IMG/VR virus record: IMGVR_UViG_2684622669_000018
Span: 1 to 7,999 of that record
Source: a virus
Taxonomy: Duplodnaviria; Heunggongvirae; Uroviricota; Caudoviricetes
Length of the DNA: 7,999 bases
Reading direction: 5' to 3' (one strand)
Part shown: piece by piece, positions 1-7,999 of the stretch
Layout of the letters: the number at the start of each line of letters is the position of its first letter
How positions within the stretch are numbered: the first letter of the stretch is position 1
Made by a program: the position numbers and the translations under genes
Notes under the pieces: model-generated
Told to the model about the DNA's origin: nothing
Databases searched by the model: none
The model's input: the letters and a program-made list of their open reading frames with translations, nothing else

Positions 1-1074
1 TCATTTGTTGATTTCAATTTTGTCCCATTCTCTCCCTCGGCTGTCCCTATACCGCGCCGCCATTGAATCTGATTTATGCCCGAGAAGACGTTGAGCAAAC
101 TTATCGCCAATCTGATTCCGGTATAGCCTCGCCGACAGGCTACGCAGTTCATGGAATGTTGGCGGGTCTCCATCAAATGAGAGTCCAGATGCATTTCTCG
201 CCTTTGTAAAATACTTAGATACTGTTTTCGGGGAAAGCGGTTCGTGATGCGTTGATGCAATTATTGTTTCACTGCCGCTGGTCTCCCTGCATTTCTGTAG
301 TGTATCAGCCAATGAAATATTGAGCGCGTCAATCGTTAGCGTCAGCGGAATGGCGAGCTTAGCCCCTGTTTTACCCTGTTCAATGTGAAGATGGTTGTCG
401 TTTATGTCTGACCATTTCATTTTGCACAAATCGCCGACTCTCTGACCTGTAACGACGGCCAAATCCATCGCAAGCCTCAGCCAGATTGGGAGAGGTTCGG
501 CTGCATGGTGAATTGCGACATACTCATTAGCTGTCAGCCTTGAGCGCCTTACTTCTGACTTTGCTGTGCGGGTTGCTGTTACCGGATTCGTAGCCACATG
601 CCCCTCGGCTATTGCCTCACGAAAAACGTCAACAAGGGTTGACCTGATTAATTTTGCGGAAGCCGCTTTACCTTCTGCTACGTAGGTGTTTAGCATTGCT
701 GCCACCTCTTTCGTTGATATGTCTGCGAGCGGTTTGTCCGGCAATTTTCTTCGGATTGCCCTGATTTTGCTGGCGTAGTCGAGTAGAGTTTTCGGCCTGA
801 TACCCCTCTCGCTGAGGATTGTTTCATATCGGTCAAGCCACGCATGAAGAGTGATTGCGTCAGCGCCTTTAATTCTGTCTATCAGTGACTCACGCCTGTT
901 CCCGGATAGCAACTCAATATTGGCCTGTATAGCTTCAGTGATTGCTATACGTCTGTCTCGGCCTAATCCGAACTCTTTACCCGTCCTTGGGTCCCTGTAG
1001 CAGTAATATCCATTGTTTCTTATATAAAGATTAGGGGGTAAATCCCGGCGCTCATGACTTCGCCTTCTTCCCAT
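1..1074 (-). CDS. int: Tyrosine integrase, lambda Int-like (357 aa, complete)
   Basis: ATG at 1074..1072, TGA at 3..1. N-terminus MGRRRSHERRDLPPNLYIRNNGYYCYRDPRTGKEFGLGRDRRIAITEAIQANIEL matches lambda Int as I recall it; C-terminal HELRSLSARLY ... LLGHKSD ... RY fits the tyrosine-recombinase catalytic signature. The 5' end overlaps the xis 3' end by 23 nt, as in lambda. Confidence 0.95.
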   Translation of the reverse strand: MGRRRSHERRDLPPNLYIRNNGYYCYRDPRTGKEFGLGRDRRIAITEAIQANIELLSGNRRESLIDRIKGADAITLHAWLDRYETILSERGIRPKTLLDYASKIRAIRRKLPDKPLADISTKEVAAMLNTYVAEGKAASAKLIRSTLVDVFREAIAEGHVATNPVTATRTAKSEVRRSRLTANEYVAIHHAAEPLPIWLRLAMDLAVVTGQRVGDLCKMKWSDINDNHLHIEQGKTGAKLAIPLTLTIDALNISLADTLQKCRETSGSETIIASTHHEPLSPKTVSKYFTKARNASGLSFDGDPPTFHELRSLSARLYRNQIGDKFAQRLLGHKSDSMAARYRDSRGREWDKIEINK

Positions 1075-1270
1075 TTCTGATCCTCTTCAAAAGGCTACCT
1101 GTTACTGGTCGATTTAAGTCAACCTTTACCGCTGATTCGTGGAACAGATACTCTCTTCCATCCTTAACCGGAGGAGGGAATATCCTGCACTCGCGTACCC
1201 ATCGACGAACTGTTTCAAGGCTTCTTGGGCGTCGCTGGCGTGCGTTCCACTCCTGAAGTGTCAAGTACAT
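1052..1270 (-). CDS. xis: Excisionase, lambda Xis-like (72 aa)
   Basis: ATG at 1270..1268, TGA at 1054..1052. MYLTLQEWNARQRRPRSLETVRRWVRECRIFPPPVKDGREYLFHESAVKVDLNRPVTG is near-identical to lambda Xis as recalled; the gene sits directly upstream of and overlapping int. Confidence 0.92.
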   Translation of the reverse strand: MYLTLQEWNARQRRPRSLETVRRWVRECRIFPPPVKDGREYLFHESAVKVDLNRPVTGSLLKRIRNGKKAKS

Positions 1271-1294
1271 CGCAAAGTCTCCGCAATTACACGC

Positions 1295-1317
1295 AAGAAA
1301 AGCCGCATTGATGCGGC
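1295..1317 (-). terminator. Candidate intrinsic terminator or attenuator between the 114-aa gene and xis
   Basis: Plus strand gccgca-ttga-tgcggc (1302..1317) forms a 6-bp GC-rich stem with a 4-nt loop. On the minus-strand transcript it is followed by UUUUCUU (plus 1295..1301). A second weaker hairpin, gcctca/tgaggc, lies at 1352..1370. Confidence 0.3.
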
Positions 1318-1375
1318 AATGGTAGGTCTGGATATCTTGAGAAATGAACAGGCCTCATTGAGTGTGAGGCTGTGG

Positions 1376-1720
1376 TTAGTCCTTGCGTAGCTCGCTAATT
1401 CTTCTGTAAGTCTCTGGTGCTTTGTTTCCGTGTATCTTCATTTCAGACTTCAACAGAGCGACGAGGGAATCCCATTCGTTGAGGATGCCTTTGAATGCCG
1501 GAACGCGCTTTGCAACCTTGTCGAATGAATCTCTGATTTCTGGAATCTGCTCAACAAGTGCAACGCATCGCCGGAAGTCTGCTGCGTCATGTGGAGCGCC
1601 GAAGTGATGACCATAGATATTCTTTTTCAGTCCACATGCGATTGAGGCAAGAGTTGCGCTACTGATGCCAACATCGCCAGTCGATTGCCATTTCAAAACC
1701 TTCATAGCCAAATCTGACAT
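1376..1720 (-). CDS. Hypothetical protein (114 aa), function unknown
   Basis: ATG at 1720..1718 preceded by GGAGA with 6-nt spacing; TAA at 1378..1376. It lies in the lambda ea8.5/ea22 position next to xis, but I recognise no family. Confidence 0.6.
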   Translation of the reverse strand: MSDLAMKVLKWQSTGDVGISSATLASIACGLKKNIYGHHFGAPHDAADFRRCVALVEQIPEIRDSFDKVAKRVPAFKGILNEWDSLVALLKSEMKIHGNKAPETYRRISELRKD

Positions 1721-1758
1721 TTCTTGTCTCCATAAAACAAAACCCGCCGTAGCGAGTT

Positions 1759-1791
1759 CAGATAAAAGAAATCCCCGCGAGTGCGAGGATT
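1759..1791 (-). terminator. Candidate internal intrinsic terminator or attenuator
   Basis: Imperfect hairpin aaatccccgcgagtgcgaggatt (1769..1791; about 9 bp with one mismatch and one G-U). On the minus-strand transcript it is followed by a U-rich tract (plus cagataaaagaa, 1759..1770). It lies between the 98-aa and 114-aa genes. Confidence 0.25.
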
Positions 1792-1838
1792 GTTATTCAT
1801 TGCCGATATTCACCTTTATCGCGAACACCTTTACCGGT

Positions 1839-2135
1839 TTATCTCCTTTGCATGGCGCGTAATTTTTTCAGATGGTTCTCCTGCTCTGTTTCAGCCAGAA
1901 TTTGTCGGTATTCCTGGTGATCGATCCGTTCAAACAGTTCATTAAAATCGTTTATTTTTACCGACTGTGTTCGCCCATCCATTCTTCTGTACAACACAGT
2001 GTTGTTTATGCAGCGAAGAATTTTTATCGGGTAGCCGGCGCTATCGGTGTATATCTGACCACGTTGAATCAGAGCGAACATTCCTTTATCCCCAGCGGAA
2101 AAGCGAATACAGAATAAATGCCACCGCGATTGCAA
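1839..2135 (-). CDS. Hypothetical protein (98 aa from TTG, or 80 aa from ATG at 2081)
   Basis: The ORF-track start at 2135..2133 is TTG, immediately abutting AGGAG (0-nt spacer). The first in-frame ATG is at 2081..2079 with a weak AAAGGA directly adjacent. TAA at 1841..1839. Start uncertain; no family recognised. Confidence 0.45.
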   Translation of the reverse strand: MQSRWHLFCIRFSAGDKGMFALIQRGQIYTDSAGYPIKILRCINNTVLYRRMDGRTQSVKINDFNELFERIDHQEYRQILAETEQENHLKKLRAMQRR

Positions 2136-2155
2136 CTCCTACAGCGGTGAATGCT

Positions 2156-2818
2156 TCAGGCCAATTCATCATTCACTCCCTGCGGCGGTTCTGGTAGCAG
2201 CATCCAGTACAAGGCGTTCCCTAACCACGATAAAGTGCCGTCGCTCAACTCCACGTATTCCCCTTGTACCTGTCCTGCCATATACTCGCCGTGCTTTGAA
2301 TAAATTAAAACCCAATCGTCTTGAGCGGGAATTCGCTCACTACAGCTTATCCAACCATCCGGAGTTACCGGAGAGTTGCCACCGGGAATATTTTCCGGAA
2401 TATTTTGTTGTGCGTTTTGTGGTTGTTCGGATTTACCCTGAAGCATGGCGGCGCGGCAGGCGTTCCAGCCAGCTGTTCGCCCAAGCGCGTAAACTTCAGA
2501 TGGATCAAGATAATCAATGTCATGCCCGTCCTCATCGTCGTTCTCAGGTAATGCAGCAGGTACTACTGGTACTGGAGGGGCGGCATAAACAGGAATAACG
2601 TCCGATTGATCTTTATTGCTTTCATCCGTCAAAGCCCAGAATAATTTTCCGGCCGGATGTTTGAAAATATAAGCAACTGGCTCTGCTTCCAGTGATGCCA
2701 GTGCAATTCGTGCCAGTTCTTCCGCTTCTTCTGCTGGCAGTACAACGTTGCTACCAGGTCCGTATGTTTCGCGCCACTGCTTGATTGTCAGCAGTCGCTC
2801 TTTGGTAATAGTGGTCAT
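2156..2818 (-). CDS. DUF551 domain-containing phage protein (220 aa)
   Basis: ATG at 2818..2816 preceded by AGGAA with 7-nt spacing; TGA at 2158..2156. The C-terminus PDGWISCSERIP...WVLIY...LSWLGNALYWMLLPEPP fits the DUF551 pattern common in lambdoid early regions. The central region is Pro/Asp/Glu-rich and looks like a low-complexity linker. Its ATG overlaps the upstream gene's TGA (ATGA at 2818..2815). Confidence 0.8.
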   Translation of the reverse strand: MTTITKERLLTIKQWRETYGPGSNVVLPAEEAEELARIALASLEAEPVAYIFKHPAGKLFWALTDESNKDQSDVIPVYAAPPVPVVPAALPENDDEDGHDIDYLDPSEVYALGRTAGWNACRAAMLQGKSEQPQNAQQNIPENIPGGNSPVTPDGWISCSERIPAQDDWVLIYSKHGEYMAGQVQGEYVELSDGTLSWLGNALYWMLLPEPPQGVNDELA

Positions 2819-3330
2819 GCCGCGTTTCCTTCTTTCTTATTAACAATTACACCGTCATATATTTCATTAAGGTGCCCTCTCAACTCCATGCGCCTTAATG
2901 CAGATAACATGTAATCGCATTCAACCTGCTTATTTCCAGTAAATGGCTTATCGTCAGGATTACCCCAACAGCAATTACCCTTGGGCCACCCATGCACTTT
3001 CCGTACTCTTCCGTTAACAACGTGAAGTAATCCCCAGCCAGGTGGTAAATCCTCAACTGAAATAATTCCCGGCTCACTAATAAAGAATCGCCAGTCGCCC
3101 ATTCCAAGAGATGGATTTTTACGAAAACGCTTTTTTCTATCTGCCAACAAGTCAGCACGAGAACACTTCGCCTCTATCAGGCATGATGCTGAATTTCTGA
3201 ATCCCATAGCATCTGGCTGTTCTCCGGTACTGGTTACAGCTATAAAGCGGTCATGAAAACAAACCTTGAACCCGTTGCGCTTAAGGAACTTATACGCAAT
3301 CTGACAGAGTTCGCGGTGTGTTAACGCCAT
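2815..3330 (-). CDS. Putative PD-(D/E)xK-motif nuclease-like protein (171 aa; possibly MmcB-like), Cys-rich C-terminus
   Basis: The ORF-track ORF 2815..3492 is a 5' over-extension that overlaps the Ea22-like gene. The internal ATG at 3330..3328 is preceded by AGGAGAG with 4-nt spacing and lies 1 nt after the Ea22-like TGA (3334..3332). The motif GEQPDAMGF...SCLIEAKCSRADLL resembles the PD...ExK nuclease signature; the C-terminus carries a GNCCWGNPDD...ECD cysteine cluster. Confidence 0.6.
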   Translation of the reverse strand: MALTHRELCQIAYKFLKRNGFKVCFHDRFIAVTSTGEQPDAMGFRNSASCLIEAKCSRADLLADRKKRFRKNPSLGMGDWRFFISEPGIISVEDLPPGWGLLHVVNGRVRKVHGWPKGNCCWGNPDDKPFTGNKQVECDYMLSALRRMELRGHLNEIYDGVIVNKKEGNAA

Positions 3331-3331
3331 A

Positions 3332-3991
3332 TCACTCTCCTTTGATGCGAATGTCAGCGGCGCGCTCGGCTTCACTTTGTTCCCAAAACCACTTGTGAAG
3401 CTCCATGAGCTTTTCGTCAATCGGTGCATATTTGCGATTAAAGTAGGCCTGAGCATCTTTCTCAGATTCGTCCGGCAATTCGCCTGGGCCAAACAGTGTG
3501 TTATAAATCCATGCCAGTCCGCTTTTAGCGTCGCCAGTTGCCTGCCATTCGATAATCGCAGCCTGCATGACCAGAATGTTTTTCCCGATTAACAGGTCCA
3601 GCTCTTTGAACCGGTTGCGGATGTATGCATTCTCGCTTTGTAATTTTGCGTTGCGCTTCTCTGCGGCTTCCAGCTCAACACGCAGCTTCCCTACAGTTAG
3701 CGCAATTTCCTCGTTCTCCTGATCGCGGCGTTTTATGTATTGCTGGTTTCTTTCCCGTTCATCCAGCAGTGCCTGCACTACTTCAGGGTTGAAAGCTGCG
3801 ATATAACGAGCATTAGCAGCAGCTTTTTTCTGTCCATCAAACCCAGGCCATTTGATAACATCTTCGCATCGTTTATCACCTGGCGTATGCACCGCATACG
3901 TACCAGTACCCGGCGAAATAAATGCGACCCATTCGCCCTGTGTTGCCTGTTTTGCTAACTCACGCAGTGCCTGATAGTCAATCTTGCTCAC
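3332..3991 (-). CDS. Ead/Ea22-like family phage protein (219 aa from GTG start)
   Basis: The ORF-track start at 4183 is a GTG with no SD, inside the Lar-like gene. GTG at 3991..3989 is preceded by AAGGAGG with 6-nt spacing. The N-terminal domain (IDYQALRELAKQATQGEWVAF...ARYIAAFNPEVVQALLDERE) and the coiled-coil middle resemble the Ead/Ea22 family as recalled. TGA at 3334..3332. Confidence 0.65.
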   Translation of the reverse strand: MSKIDYQALRELAKQATQGEWVAFISPGTGTYAVHTPGDKRCEDVIKWPGFDGQKKAAANARYIAAFNPEVVQALLDERERNQQYIKRRDQENEEIALTVGKLRVELEAAEKRNAKLQSENAYIRNRFKELDLLIGKNILVMQAAIIEWQATGDAKSGLAWIYNTLFGPGELPDESEKDAQAYFNRKYAPIDEKLMELHKWFWEQSEAERAADIRIKGE

Positions 3992-4211
3992 TGTTTGCCT
4001 CCTTTGCTCGCTGATTCCACTCTGCTCTAACCTCTGAATAAAAAATCGCGCAGTCATTTCCAGGCGCTGCATATTTGCTACCAGATTGAGCGCGACACGT
4101 ACCGCATCGAACGAAATAGAATCGACCGCCAGAGCCATATTCAGGGTGATCTGCTTCGCTGGCAACGTGCGCTGCACCGCCACAGAATGGACATGGTAGT
4201 AGGTTGCTCAT
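3978..4211 (-). CDS. lar: Lar-family restriction-alleviation protein (zinc ribbon, 77 aa)
   Basis: ATG at 4211..4209 preceded by GGGAG; TGA at 3980..3978. Protein [12 protein letters not shown]...RCGTC carries the CPFCG plus CxxC four-cysteine ribbon typical of Lar/RalR-like proteins. The start overlaps the stop of the 186-aa gene as ATGA (4211..4208). The longer ORF-track version (from 4244) is an in-frame 5' extension. Confidence 0.75.
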   Translation of the reverse strand: MSNLLPCPFCGGAAHVASEADHPEYGSGGRFYFVRCGTCRAQSGSKYAAPGNDCAIFYSEVRAEWNQRAKEANSEQD

Positions 4212-4768
4212 GAATGCACTCCCTTGTGAAGCTGTTCCGCACAATGCAGCAGGGCGTCAGTCGCCTCTTTCACCGTAACGCAGTCGCCATCGTCCAGCCC
4301 GGACACCGACGCGTGCTTAACGAACGCCGCGTAAAGGTCATCAAACGCCTTAGCCCGGACTTCAGCCAGGAAAGCATCGGTGGCTGGGGTGTCTGATTGC
4401 ATAGACTTTGCGCGATAATCATTCCACCCTCTTGCATATATGGGATTAACTTGCACCCCATCTTTTACGCAATATGCCTGCCCTCCACGGTTGATAACCT
4501 TGATTTCGTCCATAGCGCCAGACTTCAGCCCCGCATTCTCCGCCGCCAGCGCCGAAAACTTCTCGTGTGCCAACTTAACAGCCGCATCAGCCTGCTTAAT
4601 TGACTCAATCGCTTTCTGGTGGTCTTCGGACAGAGCCGAAATCTTGGCCTCCGCTTCAGCAAATTTACGCACCAGATATTCAGCGTTTGTTTCGTTAACC
4701 TTTAAATCTCGTGGGATGCATTGACCTTTCAGAAAACCATCCATCTCAATTAGTGACATTTGTTTCAT
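4208..4768 (-). CDS. Hypothetical protein (186 aa), predicted coiled-coil N-terminal half
   Basis: ATG at 4768..4766 (GGAG about 9 nt upstream); TGA at 4210..4208. The N-terminal half is Ala/Glu/Lys-rich and heptad-like. No family recognised. Translationally coupled to the Lar-like gene. Confidence 0.65.
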
Positions 4769-4945
4769 TTCTTCCCACTCCGCAACATCGCATTCAGATA
4801 TTTGTTTTGATTCACTGATGGAAAAGAATTTCTCTTAAGCAATTCCTCTCTCGATGGCATTGGCTTTACGCGTTAGAGAATAATCATTTCTGCCGGAAGA
4901 ATGCCGGGATTGTATGCAAGTCCTCTCATGGTAAATTCCTCTTTG

Positions 4946-5260
4946 TTAATTTATTCGTATGCCTGCTCTTTCTTCATCGAGTTTTTTTAGCTTGTATCGC
5001 ATAGCTCTTACTGAATAAATTGAGCGGCAGGTTGCAATTGCTATTTCTTCCGCGGTGAACTTACCGAAAAGTGATACTTCGGCTCTTGTCCATCGTCTTC
5101 CACGAAGTCGGCTAACAATGTCAGCGCCAATCCTTGTTGCTTTCGCCATAACTGCTTTTTCAGTCCTTTCCAGTTTTTCAGCGATAACTTCAACTGGCAT
5201 TGTCGCCGCTACTTCGCGCAAGAAATCGACTTCCCATTTCTCCCATGGAGTCTTTTTCAT
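4946..5260 (-). CDS. Hypothetical protein with two Myb/SANT-like repeats (104 aa); possible DNA-binding protein
   Basis: ATG at 5260..5258, 11 nt after the Gp157 TAA, with no clear SD (probable coupling). Internal duplication: WEKWEVDFLREV...EVIAEKLERTEKAV and WTRAEVSLFGKFTAEEIAIATCRSIYSVRAM. TAA at 4948..4946. Confidence 0.55.
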   Translation of the reverse strand: MKKTPWEKWEVDFLREVAATMPVEVIAEKLERTEKAVMAKATRIGADIVSRLRGRRWTRAEVSLFGKFTAEEIAIATCRSIYSVRAMRYKLKKLDEERAGIRIN

Positions 5261-5271
5261 AGGCGATACCG

Positions 5272-5754
5272 TTATTTGATAAGAAGTGAAGGTTTCCCAA
5301 CTTTGAGTTGAGCGCCGGGGATATTTATTCCTGCTTTTAGTTGGTGTTTGATTGCCAACTTGTCGGCTTTAATTGTTGTTTCAAACTCAACGTATTCAGG
5401 AGGAAGGGCGCTTGAGTCGATGATTTCTACAGTTTCTGACGGTTTGCGGATTGTTACCTGGTGAATACCTGCTCGCATCTTTTTCTTGCCAACCATTTCA
5501 AGCGATGACGCTATATATGATTTGATGCTGTCAATCTTATTTTGAATTACTGCGGCTCGTTCATTCAGTGACTTTGCCTCTTCCTTGAGGCGTTCAGCAT
5601 AACCAGATTCATTTTTAATAATGGCGAGAAGTTGCTCTATTTTATCGGTAAATTCTCCTTCCATGCCTTCTATTGTGTCAGCAATCATCTCTGGTTCTAA
5701 ATCTGAATCCATCAATTTTGCGTATTCATTGGCTATTTCATATAGTTTGCTCAC
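5272..5754 (-). CDS. Siphovirus Gp157-family protein (about 160 aa)
   Basis: (V)SKLYEIANEYAKLMD...IADTIEGMEGEF...EMVGKKKMRAGIHQVTIRK...VEIIDSSALPPEY fits the Gp157 family usually found beside phage annealing proteins. The ORF-track start is TTG at 5760; GTG at 5754 has GGAGG 6 nt upstream and is preferred. The 5' end overlaps the recT 3' end. TAA at 5274..5272. Confidence 0.8.
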   Translation of the reverse strand: MSKLYEIANEYAKLMDSDLEPEMIADTIEGMEGEFTDKIEQLLAIIKNESGYAERLKEEAKSLNERAAVIQNKIDSIKSYIASSLEMVGKKKMRAGIHQVTIRKPSETVEIIDSSALPPEYVEFETTIKADKLAIKHQLKAGINIPGAQLKVGKPSLLIK

Positions 5755-6649
5755 TGGCAACCTCCAGTTTCGCTTTGCATTCCATGTAAATGGCTTGTAC
5801 GTTCTGCTGCAATTTCATTCCAGATGTCAGGCGATATGCTTCTGCAAAATATCGCTTCAAATCATCCATGTTTTCAGCCTGAGCCATTTCATCACAAAGA
5901 AGTTGTGCTTTTTCCATAATTTCCTGCTGTCGTTTCCGTTCATCTTCGCGGATATCTTCCTCTGATTTGTGCGGCATAACTGGTTCAGTCCACACACCTT
6001 CTTCTTCGTTTAGTACGTGAATAGCACTATCAAGACGTGATGCCTTAGGCCAATACTTGCTTGCACGCTTTACGACCGTCTTTCGCGCCATCTCATTCCA
6101 GTGATTTACCCATGGTCCTTTATCGCTGAATGCTGCCTTGCTTGTTTTCCTTACAGCCTCAATTTCAGCCAGACTCATCTCTTCCGTTAGATAATCACCT
6201 GCTGGCGTCTTAACTGTGCAGTAAACGCCAACAATATCACCACGATCACCGAAGGCGTTGTATTTATGGGTTGGTGCTTTATCAAGCCCGTTTGACTCAT
6301 AGGTATCGTTAGCATGAACAAGTTTTGCCTGACCCCATGAGATAACACCAGACTCCATTGCAATATGGAGCAATCCCATATAACTGATATCAAGGCACAC
6401 CATGCCGTCGCGCGGAACCAGATAAGCCAGTTTGCTAGCCGGGTTTAAGGTGATACCGATCGCCGCAACATTGATGATGGCGTTCTGTGCGCTGGTTGGA
6501 TTTGCCAGTGCTGTTTTAGCCAGGTAATCATTTTTCTGGAAATACTGAATTGCAAACTGGCTTTCCTTAGCCCATGTCACCGTCTGTTCAGTCAATGCTC
6601 CGCAGAATAACTGCTCTTGCTGTTTAACGAATTCAACGATATTGCTCAT
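5738..6649 (-). CDS. recT: RecT-family single-strand annealing protein (303 aa)
   Basis: ATG at 6649..6647 preceded by GGAG with 7-nt spacing; TGA at 5740..5738. The conserved block GPWVNHWNEMARKTVVKRASKYWP matches the RecT/Redbeta-superfamily core as recalled from Rac RecT (GPWVTHWEEMAKKT...). The start overlaps the stop of the upstream 103-aa gene as ATGA. Confidence 0.88.
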   Translation of the reverse strand: MSNIVEFVKQQEQLFCGALTEQTVTWAKESQFAIQYFQKNDYLAKTALANPTSAQNAIINVAAIGITLNPASKLAYLVPRDGMVCLDISYMGLLHIAMESGVISWGQAKLVHANDTYESNGLDKAPTHKYNAFGDRGDIVGVYCTVKTPAGDYLTEEMSLAEIEAVRKTSKAAFSDKGPWVNHWNEMARKTVVKRASKYWPKASRLDSAIHVLNEEEGVWTEPVMPHKSEEDIREDERKRQQEIMEKAQLLCDEMAQAENMDDLKRYFAEAYRLTSGMKLQQNVQAIYMECKAKLEVASEQTI

Positions 6650-6957
6650 GCTGCTTCTCCATAAACGTGTCTGCGTTTGAATATTGCGAAGGCATATTCA
6701 GCCTTAACTCTTTCGGTTATTGCATCCCAGAACCATTCAGCGGCTTTTTCCTGATAGTTACAGTCATAATCTTCCAGCCAGTCGATAGCTTCCTTAGTGT
6801 GTTCATCTGGTTTATATGAGCGAAGCATTTCGCTTATTGGGTCGCAACGTTTGCAGAGGCGATCAACTTCACTGTTGATTCGTTCGTAATCTTCATCAGT
6901 AAAACTTGCGATTATTTGCGATATTTCACGCTCATCTTTCAGAGTCAGAATCATCAT
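6646..6957 (-). CDS. Hypothetical acidic protein (103 aa)
   Basis: ATGATG at 6957..6952 preceded by AGGAG; TGA at 6648..6646. About 24 Asp/Glu against about 15 Lys/Arg; two CxxC-like spacings (C..C at RLCKRC). It occupies the position of lambda gam, immediately upstream of the annealing protein. Confidence 0.6.
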   Translation of the reverse strand: MMILTLKDEREISQIIASFTDEDYERINSEVDRLCKRCDPISEMLRSYKPDEHTKEAIDWLEDYDCNYQEKAAEWFWDAITERVKAEYAFAIFKRRHVYGEAA

Positions 6958-7042
6958 CTTTCTCCTGTTCTTTGTGCTGATTGAGCATTTCTTTCATCTG
7001 ACGAATAAATTCTTCGTCTGACCAGTTATCTGTAAAACTCAT
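6932..7042 (-). CDS. Possible small ORF (36 aa, acidic C-terminus); speculative
   Basis: ATG at 7042..7040 overlaps the kil-like TGA (7041..7039) as ATGA. Translates to MSFTDNWSDEEFIRQMKEMLNQHKEQEKDDDSDSER. The SD is weak (AGGAA abutting the ATG). It overlaps the first 26 nt of the 103-aa gene. Not in the ORF track because of its size. Confidence 0.25.
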   Translation of the reverse strand: MSFTDNWSDEEFIRQMKEMLNQHKEQEKDDDSDSER

Positions 7043-7191
7043 TTCCTGCGATACCACGGAAGGTTGATAGCTGATTTCATCGCTTTATTTGCTTCAAGCC
7101 ACATTTTTGAATCACCAATAAATCTGGCTATTACTGCTTTGTTCTGTGCTGCACGAAGCATCTGGTGATTGATGGCTATTTCATTGCGCAT
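7039..7191 (-). CDS. kil: Kil-like host-killing / FtsZ-inhibitor small protein (50 aa)
   Basis: ATG at 7191..7189 preceded by GGAGG with 4-nt spacing. Translates to MRNEIAINHQMLRAAQNKAVIARFIGDSKMWLEANKAMKSAINLPWYRRK. The FIGD-x-KM core and its position overlapping the cIII 3' end by 16 nt mirror lambda kil as recalled. Missed by the ORF track (under 60 aa). Confidence 0.5.
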   Translation of the reverse strand: MRNEIAINHQMLRAAQNKAVIARFIGDSKMWLEANKAMKSAINLPWYRRK

Positions 7192-7310
7192 AACGCCTCC
7201 AGTTGTTTCTTTGCTGCTCTGATTAATTGTTTAACTCGGCGTGATAATTCAGATTCGTGCGGGTAGAAAGCGGACATGACGCCGCTACCCGCGAGCTGAA
7301 AGTGCATCAT
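7176..7310 (-). CDS. cIII: CIII-like small protein (44 aa), putative FtsH inhibitor
   Basis: ATGATG at 7310..7305 preceded by AAGGAG with 6-nt spacing; TAG at 7178..7176. MMHFQLAGSGVMSAFYPHESELSRRVKQLIRAAKKQLEAL resembles lambda CIII (M..AIAG....PSESLLERITRKL...) as recalled, and lies immediately upstream of kil. The ORF-track ORF 7176..7415 is a 5' over-extension. Confidence 0.5.
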   Translation of the reverse strand: MMHFQLAGSGVMSAFYPHESELSRRVKQLIRAAKKQLEALCAMK

Positions 7311-7372
7311 GGGTAACTCCTTATATTTGATTGCATAACGAAAACGCCTCGAGTGAAGCGTTATTGGTATGC

Positions 7373-7400
7373 ATATAAAAAAGCCCTCACACTGGAGGGC
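7373..7400 (-). terminator. Intrinsic terminator (tL1-like position, upstream of cIII)
   Basis: On the minus-strand transcript: GCCCUC-cagugu-GAGGGC (plus 7383..7400) followed directly by UUUUUUAUAU (plus 7373..7382). Perfect 6-bp stem. Confidence 0.5.
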
Positions 7401-7462
7401 AAAGAAGATTTCCAATAATCAGAACAAGTCGGCTCCTGTTTAGTTACGAGCGACATTGCTCC

Positions 7463-7490
7463 GTGTATTCACTCGTTGGAATGAATACAC
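7463..7490. repeat. Perfect 9-bp inverted repeat with 10-nt spacer
   Basis: gtgtattca (7463..7471) and tgaatacac (7482..7490) are exact reverse complements, with spacer ctcgttggaa. No U-run follows on either strand, so this is not a terminator. Candidate protein-binding site or RNA stem-loop. Confidence 0.4.
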
Positions 7491-7517
7491 AGTGCAGTGT
7501 TTATTCTGTTGTTTGTG

Positions 7518-7545
7518 CTAAAAATAAAGGCCGACTATGCGGCCT
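7518..7545 (-). terminator. Intrinsic terminator immediately after the membrane-protein gene
   Basis: Plus strand aggccg-actatg-cggcct (7528..7545) begins 5 nt after the TGA at 7552..7550. On the minus-strand transcript the hairpin is followed by UUAUUUUUAG (plus 7518..7527). Confidence 0.5.
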
Positions 7546-7549
7546 AAAA

Positions 7550-7999
7550 TCACTTAACCAATGATGCTGCATATTCGATAAGGTAAAGCTTTGGAGCCAG
7601 CCAAATTTTCAACCAAGTCATATTGGTTACTGCACTAATAATAAAAATCCCCCACAGAATCAAAACTCCAACCAATGGAATGATAAGAAGATTAATATCA
7701 CCTTTGCTATCCCAAACCATTGTCGGCCTGTATTTGGGATTTCCCTTCTCCCATGAATATCCTTCATCACCGATTTTACCTGTCTCAACTCTTTGGCACT
7801 GCTTCTTCATAAACCAGAAAACCAGTGGGATTGTTAGAATGGCTATTAATGTTTTAATCAGACTGTCAACCATATTCCATATTAGCAACTGATGAACAAC
7901 ATCAGGAATCTGTGCCTGGCTAAATGAAACAGCCGCGTCTATTCCATCACTGGCTTTTTGCAGTAGTTCTACGAGAATCTTGTTTGCTTGTTCTTCCAT
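7550..7999 (-). CDS. Small membrane protein with two predicted TM helices (149 aa or longer; N-terminus may lie beyond the window); candidate superinfection-exclusion or moron product
   Basis: The ORF runs to the window edge; the ATG at 7999..7997 may or may not be the true start. Hydrophobic segments LIKTLIAILTIPLVFWFM and LLIIPLVGVLILWGIFIISAV. Visibly AT-rich compared with the rest of the window. Followed by its own terminator. Confidence 0.65.
   Translation of the reverse strand: MEEQANKILVELLQKASDGIDAAVSFSQAQIPDVVHQLLIWNMVDSLIKTLIAILTIPLVFWFMKKQCQRVETGKIGDEGYSWEKGNPKYRPTMVWDSKGDINLLIIPLVGVLILWGIFIISAVTNMTWLKIWLAPKLYLIEYAASLVK

Follow-up and report, generated by a model that had tools for sequence, protein, structure and literature searches.

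The DNA analysed here, hereafter the window, is a stretch of 7,999 nucleotides (positions 1 to 7,999 of the IMG/VR record IMGVR_UViG_2684622669_000018) in which two small open reading frames (ORFs) of 36 and 103 residues lie between kil and the gene of a RecT-family single-strand annealing protein. All relevant genes of the window are found on the minus strand and correspond to the early-left (pL) operon of a lambdoid Escherichia coli prophage. They follow one another in the order cIII (7310–7176; PF08134, E-value 2e-30), kil, coding for the host division inhibitor (7191–7039; PF06301, 1.7e-20; phrog_2055, 1.2e-35), the 36-residue ORF (7042–6932; MSFTDNWSDEEFIRQMKEMLNQHKEQEKDDDSDSER), hereafter the micro-ORF, the 103-residue ORF (6957–6646), which opens the recombination module, recT (6649–5738; PF03837, 3.7e-32; phrog_148, 6.8e-92), a gene for a Sipho_Gp157 protein overlapping the end of recT (5760–5272; PF05565, 1.4e-37; phrog_253, 1.3e-53) and, at the distal end of the module, a 104-residue ORF (5260–4946; PHROG 11492/323). 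The order from cIII to RecT is the one given in an initial annotation, made from the sequence alone, which proposed the two small ORFs as candidate RecBCD inhibitors or recombination accessory factors of unrecognised family. The explanation that we favour, with a probability of roughly 0.55, is that they form a linked gene pair coding for a Gam-fold RecBCD inhibitor and a conserved micro-protein.

The genes are tightly packed. The stop codon of kil and the start of the micro-ORF share an ATGA at 7042–7039, the stop of the 103-residue ORF and the start of recT share another one at 6649–6646, both as initially reported, and the two small ORFs overlap by 26 nucleotides (6957–6932) in different frames. 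A hairpin scan of the window detected no terminator-like site between cIII and RecT and a GGAG lies 7 nucleotides ahead of the RecT ATG, so that these genes are read as one coupled unit. Three terminator-like hairpins are present 5' of cIII (7545–7528, 7400–7383 and 7362–7343), the last two just upstream of it, and the records of mEpX1 and HK97 have a terminator annotated at the equivalent place; an Rfam scan of the window returned no RNA family. Both products are acidic, as had been noted, with an isoelectric point of 4.68 for the 103-residue protein (24 D+E vs. 15 K+R) and of 4.27 for that of the micro-ORF, which ends in DDDSDSE(R). Of 5,426 complete E. coli genomes, 265 (about 5%) contain the 397-nucleotide segment with the two ORFs over nearly its whole length, and RefSeq often annotates two hypothetical proteins there. 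Near-identical modules occur in the phages Gally, Kapi1, mEpX1 and HK140, in whose records the 103-residue gene is a “hypothetical protein” and the micro-ORF is annotated only in some. We take the two ORFs to be genuine early genes of this operon, linked in their translation; judging from the frequency of the arrangement in E. coli genomes and from the diverged protein homologues of both ORFs, it is not a chance ORF pattern. A programmed frameshift fusing the two frames was considered and rejected, as the junction is a plain ATGA elsewhere and the 103-residue gene has its own AGGAG and ATG.

The AGGAG in question (6966–6962) lies 7 nucleotides before the second ATG of the 103-residue ORF (6954), and the homologues begin with M-x-L-T. 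This suggests that the larger protein probably counts 102 residues starting at 6954. It matches PHROG 3486, a family of unknown function (E-value 3.7e-57), and nothing meaningful was found in sequence searches of Pfam, NCBIfam and the PDB, the best matches of the family being HJURP_C (the C-terminal repeat of the Holliday junction regulator protein family, 0.1) and ribosomal protein S15 (0.018). Word-indexed searches, with the protein and then with the family alignment, assembled about 80 clusters of unnamed proteins, all of approximately 100 residues, from Escherichia, Salmonella, Cronobacter, Enterobacter, Dryocola and Erwinia, and an exhaustive profile search of 1.84 billion representatives yielded no more than 69 proteins with E ≤ 0.001. 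Members as distant as approximately 30% identity can still be aligned, with E11, I15, D23, I27, V31, L61 and the last residue invariant. Comparison of 69 close loci over 93 codons reveals 22 synonymous and 16 non-synonymous changes. The C-terminal EAA is invariant whatever gene follows, be it that of RecT, of a RecE-like nuclease or of a 167-residue protein, and its codons (6646–6660 in the window) overlap the ribosome-binding site and the ATGA of the next gene; the constraint may concern either the protein itself or the coupling of translation. Two natural deletion fusions involve this gene: in one (P0025) the micro-ORF is joined to the C-terminal third of the 103-residue protein at a DDD repeat, and in the other (P0022) the N-terminal half of the protein is joined to the C-terminal end of the window ORF 4208–4768.

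In lambda the slot of the 103-residue gene, after cIII and kil and before the annealing protein in the pL operon, is occupied by gam; the order cIII-kil-gam-bet-exo, on which the initial annotation relied, was confirmed. Lambda Gam (GamS; PF06064, PHROG 259; PDB entries 2UUZ and 5MBV) shares approximately 15% identity with the 103-residue protein. An AlphaFold2 model of the latter, built from a 36-sequence alignment and no templates, shows five helices with a mean predicted local distance difference test (pLDDT) score of 89.9 and a predicted template modelling (pTM) score of 0.75, and when this model was compared with 48,164 PDB chains lambda GamS ranked first. Structure prediction, which had been suggested as a check, thus gives a fold closest to GamS, but the corresponding Foldseek hits are not significant: three of the 14 weak PDB matches are GamS chains, and these have the highest TM-scores (0.48/0.56). 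On the sequence side, local comparison of the family alignment with a Gam alignment by hhalign yields a co-linear match (P = 0.0012) between residues 37–76 and 37–80, respectively. The aligned stretch spans the motif DDDxx[FY]QE[KR]xAE and places the nearly invariant Q69 of the family on the invariant glutamine of Gam; when the columns of the Gam alignment were permuted 300 times, the real score was never reached. Moreover, both proteins are of approximately 100 residues and have similar net charges (−9 for the 103-residue protein vs. −10 for GamS). The two differ in the N-terminal helix, which in the model is broken at residues 18–20, unlike in lambda GamS, and in their partners, Bet and Exo for lambda Gam, RecT and Gp157 for the window gene; the module of the window contains neither an exonuclease nor a single-stranded DNA-binding protein.

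A precedent for a Gam-fold protein of very different sequence exists. Zheng, Casjens, Davidson, Amundsen and Smith (Genome Res 2025; PMC12315714), who surveyed 325 lambdoid phages for their Rec modules, distinguish four types of anti-RecBCD function, Gam, GamL, Abc2 and MuGam, the last of which includes the Gp157-type protein, taken to act in end protection and against RecBCD. In their study the GamL of phi80 is very unlike Gam in sequence and is predicted to adopt the same fold. The GamL proteins of phi80 and HK639 (PHROG 1050) sit directly ahead of RecT, as does the 103-residue gene of the window, and HK639, listed there as GamL-RecT-MuGam and the only phage known with two anti-RecBCD genes (PMC12315714), has with its GamL-RecT-Gp157 order the same architecture as the window. 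At the N-terminus GamL keeps the MNAYLTYDRIE of Gam and the 103-residue family has M-x-L-T-x-x-D-x-x-E-I; at the C-terminus GamL ends in CPF and the family in EAA. The CPF ending is found before the annealing-protein gene in phi80 GamL (L093:1698–1979) and HK639 gp40 (L094:1698–1982), and also in HK97 gp42-type ORFs, namely Sf6 gp29 and an unannotated overlapping HK75 ORF (L010:2580–2750 and L111:2580–2750), proteins that are otherwise unrelated in sequence; it may represent a shared C-terminal signal or a junction sequence. In the Rac prophage the slot counterpart is RacC, the product of a small gene of unknown function downstream of kilR and directly upstream of recE-recT; RacC was tried as a homologue and rejected, BLASTP giving no alignment at E ≤ 100.

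Several results weigh against a relationship with Gam or against the function that it would imply. Foldseek, which is insensitive for this model, returned no significant match in the PDB or BFVD. The 103-residue protein is not matched by PF06064, the lambda Gam family, at E ≤ 1, nor by the Gam and GamL families PHROG 259 or 1050, and Gam is absent from the PDB profile matches of the family at E ≤ 10. Global alignment of the family with Gam by hhalign is not significant (P = 0.07), and neither are its comparisons with phi80 GamL (P = 0.097 and 0.41). Finally, Gp157, which other authors regard as an anti-RecBCD protein of the MuGam type, is already present in most of the modules, where a second inhibitor would therefore be redundant. 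Setting these points against position, fold rank, profile match, size, charge and mutual exclusivity with the known inhibitors (see below), we consider it quite likely that the 103-residue protein is a true, very remote relative of the Gam fold, as far as a predicted model can tell; that it inhibits RecBCD is somewhat more probable than the opposite. If it is such a relative, the family would add a third type of sequence to the fold, the other two being those of lambda Gam and phi80 GamL. The earlier description as an unrecognised family holds in the sense that no database names either protein, and fails for the larger one in that it is most likely a remote Gam relative.

In each of the 13 distinct genomic contexts examined, the gene of the family heads the recombination module, overlapping or abutting the next gene. 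These comprise RecT with Gp157 (this window, L095, L101, L105 and L108–110, as well as Salmonella L102 with an insertion), RecT with a YqaJ/lambda-Exo-like nuclease (ENT47670, Midgardsormr38, L096 and L106), a RecE-like nuclease with RecT (phiEt88), a RecE-like nuclease with a 189-residue protein (SEN22) and a 167-residue protein with YqaJ (L098). In the Salmonella prophages L102–L104 a 97-residue cysteine-rich ORF (3309–3602; MTAKTIEVKCKCCPDTF...) stands between the Gam-like gene and recT, ATGA-coupled to the stop of the former. Lambda Gam, phi80 GamL and P22 Abc2 are encoded in the flanks of none of the 104 loci that carry the gene. Gp157 is encoded at 93 of them; ten have neither Gp157 nor any known inhibitor, and one more (L086) ends just past the gene. 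At those ten loci the family gene is thus the sole anti-RecBCD candidate. Zheng et al. scored HK140, which has the same module as the window, as RecT + MuGam only and the SEN22 class as devoid of an anti-RecBCD gene (PMC12315714), which indicates that the family was missed in their census. SEN22 has 0/0 Chi sites, and no Chi site (GCTGGTGG) occurs on either strand of the Cronobacter phage ENT47670 (47.6 kb; family gene-RecT-Exo) or of the window. The absence of Chi from ENT47670 fits the rule reported in PMC12315714 and is weak evidence, given that chance alone predicts fewer than one site on each strand.

The same distribution bears on the alternative that the 103-residue protein is Gam-like in fold and acts on another target, such as SbcCD, an end-sensing host defence or the recombination proteins of the phage, leaving the control of RecBCD to Gp157. 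The co-occurrence with Gp157 at most loci speaks in its favour, as do the counting of Gp157 as the anti-RecBCD function of the module by Zheng et al. (PMC12315714), the reported interaction of lambda Gam itself with SbcCD (PMC5218532) and the extreme sequence divergence of the family from Gam. We nevertheless regard it as improbable. The family gene heads modules without Gp157 or another known inhibitor (SEN22, ENT47670, Midgardsormr38, phiEt88, L096, L098 and L106), it never co-occurs with Gam, GamL or Abc2, and its partners are annealing proteins and nucleases of unrelated kinds, contrary to what one would expect of a cofactor specific for one partner.

Turning to the micro-ORF, its product matches phrog_17766 (E-value 8.6e-16) and, over residues 1–21 only, phrog_2123 (9e-12), so that its family, initially taken as unrecognised, is already represented in the PHROGs. 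Diverged homologues of 33–36 residues were identified in Cronobacter, Enterobacter, Dryocola and metagenomic lineages. They share the core W-S-D-E-E-F-I-R-x-M-K-E-M-L, as illustrated by the sequences from Enterobacter (MSIADTWSEDAFVRLMQDMLKQQ...), the metagenomic lineage L108 (...QWSDEQFARLMKDMG...), Cronobacter (...DMTDEQFARLMKDLMKQ...) and Dryocola (L106) with two metagenomic relatives (L109 and L110; ...MPEPEFLERMFEMLGG... and ...MPEDEFLAAMKEMLRG...). All overlap the start of the Gam-like gene, by a plain ATGA in every case except the Enterobacter locus. With respect to the core of the window they have 49–71% nucleotide identity, and in most pairs the non-synonymous substitution rate (dN) is lower than the synonymous one (dS). 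From the sequences compared, the short form appears as a family of its own, and we propose that its functional part is the conserved, helix-like core WSDEEFIRxMKEML, an amphipathic N-terminal to central segment. The tail behaves differently: DDDSDSE(R) is coded by the overlap with the start of the 103-residue ORF, and elsewhere the proteins end in PEPQKESA or QQEQKQ. The initial annotation had pointed to this tail as a hint of DNA mimicry; a selected DNA mimic was rejected here, the acidic tail being a by-product of the gene overlap that is not conserved across lineages. At two loci (L057 and L073, upstream of position 4004) the gene for the 149-residue membrane protein that precedes cIII in the window is fused to the micro-ORF at W7, with deletion of cIII and kil.

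The micro-ORF resembles two small genes that follow kil in other phages. In P22 the gene order is c3-kil-arf-erf-abc1-abc2, with accessory genes next to that of the annealing protein as initially stated; arf lies in the slot of the micro-ORF, and abc1 and abc2 come after erf. Arf (PHROG 2445) is a small acidic protein whose gene overlaps the end of kil and precedes the recombination genes, as does the 36-residue ORF, and both share [FW]SDEEFI near the N-terminus (FSDEEFI in Arf). They differ in length, 47 vs. 36 residues, and in the module that follows, Erf for P22 and RecT for the window. The match of the micro-ORF with the phrog_2445 profile is weak (E-value 0.061 over residues 5–27), with a BLASTP E-value of 0.008, and when Arf was scored against the small-ORF family model five of 5,000 shuffles reached its score. 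The support that Arf lends to Erf recombination is known as a genetic phenotype (Poteete et al. 1991, cited in PMC12315714). The second case is HK75 Gp33 (HK75_33), which starts with MSFTDNWSDEEFIRQMKEL, identical to the first 19 residues of the micro-ORF, and then diverges. According to a 2026 preprint (bioRxiv 10.64898/2026.07.10.737580), expression of Gp33 by itself triggers P2 OLD, a RecBCD-sensing system, as do lambda Gam and T7 gp5.9, and the authors propose it as a new RecBCD inhibitor or manipulator. Gp33, HK97 gp42.1 and Sf6 gp30 belong to PHROG 2123; these proteins count 52–83 residues and precede Erf modules. Over their first 19–21 residues they are identical to the micro-ORF, as is the ATGA that joins them to kil, and after residue 20 or so they are unrelated to it, so that no full-length match to PHROG 2123 was obtained. 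On these sequence grounds we place the micro-ORF with the small post-kil proteins HK75 Gp33 and HK97 gp42.1, and probably with P22 Arf.

The resemblance to Arf and the OLD phenotype of a protein with the same start make a role in recombination or towards RecBCD plausible for the micro-ORF. Two points weaken it: the similarity with Arf is limited to approximately 10 residues, and the tail of Gp33 differs, so that the OLD-triggering activity may not lie in the shared N-terminus. There is also the alternative that the ORF is non-functional, either a leftover of a mosaic junction after kil or a relay passing ribosomes onward. Its first 21 codons indeed belong to a block of near-identical DNA common to many lambdoid phages, including HK97 (gp42.1), Sf6 (gp30), HK022 and the Stx phages, whatever follows. 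Among 80 close loci the ORF is intact in 75, with two nonsense mutations, one frameshift and two deletion fusions, and the close relatives show four synonymous vs. 12 non-synonymous changes, too few to decide. The tail is coded by overlap, and the Erwinia relatives of the 103-residue gene lack the ORF. On the other hand, lineages at the nucleotide identities given above keep an ORF of 33–36 residues with the core motif and mostly dN < dS, the WSDEEFI codons of the close relatives change only synonymously, HK75 Gp33, with the same N-terminus, has a reported phenotype (bioRxiv 10.64898/2026.07.10.737580) and P22 arf, in the same slot, has the genetic one attributed to Poteete et al. (1991) in PMC12315714. 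We therefore judge a non-functional ORF to be unlikely and consider that the sequence comparisons make a translated and functional micro-protein a good deal more credible; whether it acts on recombination or RecBCD is a closer matter, with the odds falling slightly short of even.

A further improbable alternative is that the fold match is coincidental and that an early protein of another kind, small, helical and unrelated to Gam, for instance a regulator or host-takeover factor, is encoded at the module boundary. Against it stand the first rank of GamS among all chains compared, precisely what synteny predicts, the independent profile evidence aligning the same regions, the tight coupling in all lineages with whichever Rec gene follows, through an ATGA overlap or frames that abut, and the invariant C-terminal EAA over the ribosome-binding site of that gene.

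The candidacy put forward by the initial annotation thus retains in its favour the module position and GamS-like predicted fold of one protein and the Arf motif and Gp33 start of the other, and we return to the reading of a Gam-fold RecBCD inhibitor linked to a conserved micro-protein. From the way in which the genes are ordered, coupled and conserved, and from the fold predicted, we infer a course of events that extends to dimerisation, RecBCD binding and any phenotype of the 103-residue protein. It would begin with N-dependent read-through of the terminators upstream of cIII, after which ribosomes would translate cIII, kil, the micro-ORF, the Gam-fold protein, RecT and Gp157 via their overlapping frames, so that the Gam-fold protein would be made first in the module, ATGA-coupled to the next recombination gene. 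Acidic and helical, it may, in analogy to GamS (PMC5218532), dimerise and plug the site at which RecBCD binds DNA ends. Such a block would protect the DNA ends of the phage and let the RecT-based system work: Gp157 would protect the ends directly, RecT would anneal single strands and the micro-protein might assist or tune end protection or annealing. A more specific version, in which the WSDEEFIRxMKEML peptide is a portable N-terminal module relevant to RecBCD or OLD, common to HK75 Gp33 and P22 Arf, spliced by lambdoid phages onto different tails and forming a conserved two-part unit with the Gam-fold protein, which alone or with the peptide would act on RecBCD or on some other end-sensing nuclease or defence in a manner distinct from lambda Gam, seems to us rather improbable. 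A Gam-fold protein acting distinctly from lambda Gam, alone or paired, would explain the coexistence with a MuGam-type protein.

If the family blocks RecBCD, module types scored as lacking an inhibitor (the SEN22 type and RecT + Exo modules such as that of ENT47670) would have one, which would tighten the reported link between possession of a RecBCD inhibitor and absence of Chi sites. The Gam fold would also be known in a third and very divergent sequence, of use in recombineering and in studies of defences guarding RecBCD (OLD, retrons and Gabija). The micro-ORF, for its part, is a short and concrete candidate for what is active in HK75 Gp33 and in the long-puzzling Arf of P22. On this interpretation, which is partly supported, the pair consists of a new and very divergent member of the Gam kind and a conserved micro-protein linked to Arf and Gp33.

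Concerning the remainder of the window, the 104-residue ORF at 4946–5260 is labelled “Anti-RecBCD protein 1, similar to P22 Abc1” in phage Gally and “D5-like transcriptional regulator” in other records. The Abc1-like label has no BLAST support, tblastn of P22 Abc1 against the window giving nothing, and neither Abc1 nor Abc2 of P22 matches anywhere in the window. Upstream of cIII, the gene of the 149-residue predicted membrane protein (7999–7550, minus strand; PHROG 3054, function unknown) is followed by a strong terminator-like hairpin. Downstream of the module lie, also on the minus strand, the gene for a Lar-type restriction-alleviation protein (3978–4244; PF14354, 1.9e-9), which overlaps the start of an Ead/Ea22-like gene (3332–4183), and beyond these a DUF551 gene (2156–2818) and a DUF4222 gene (1839–2135), followed by xis and int.

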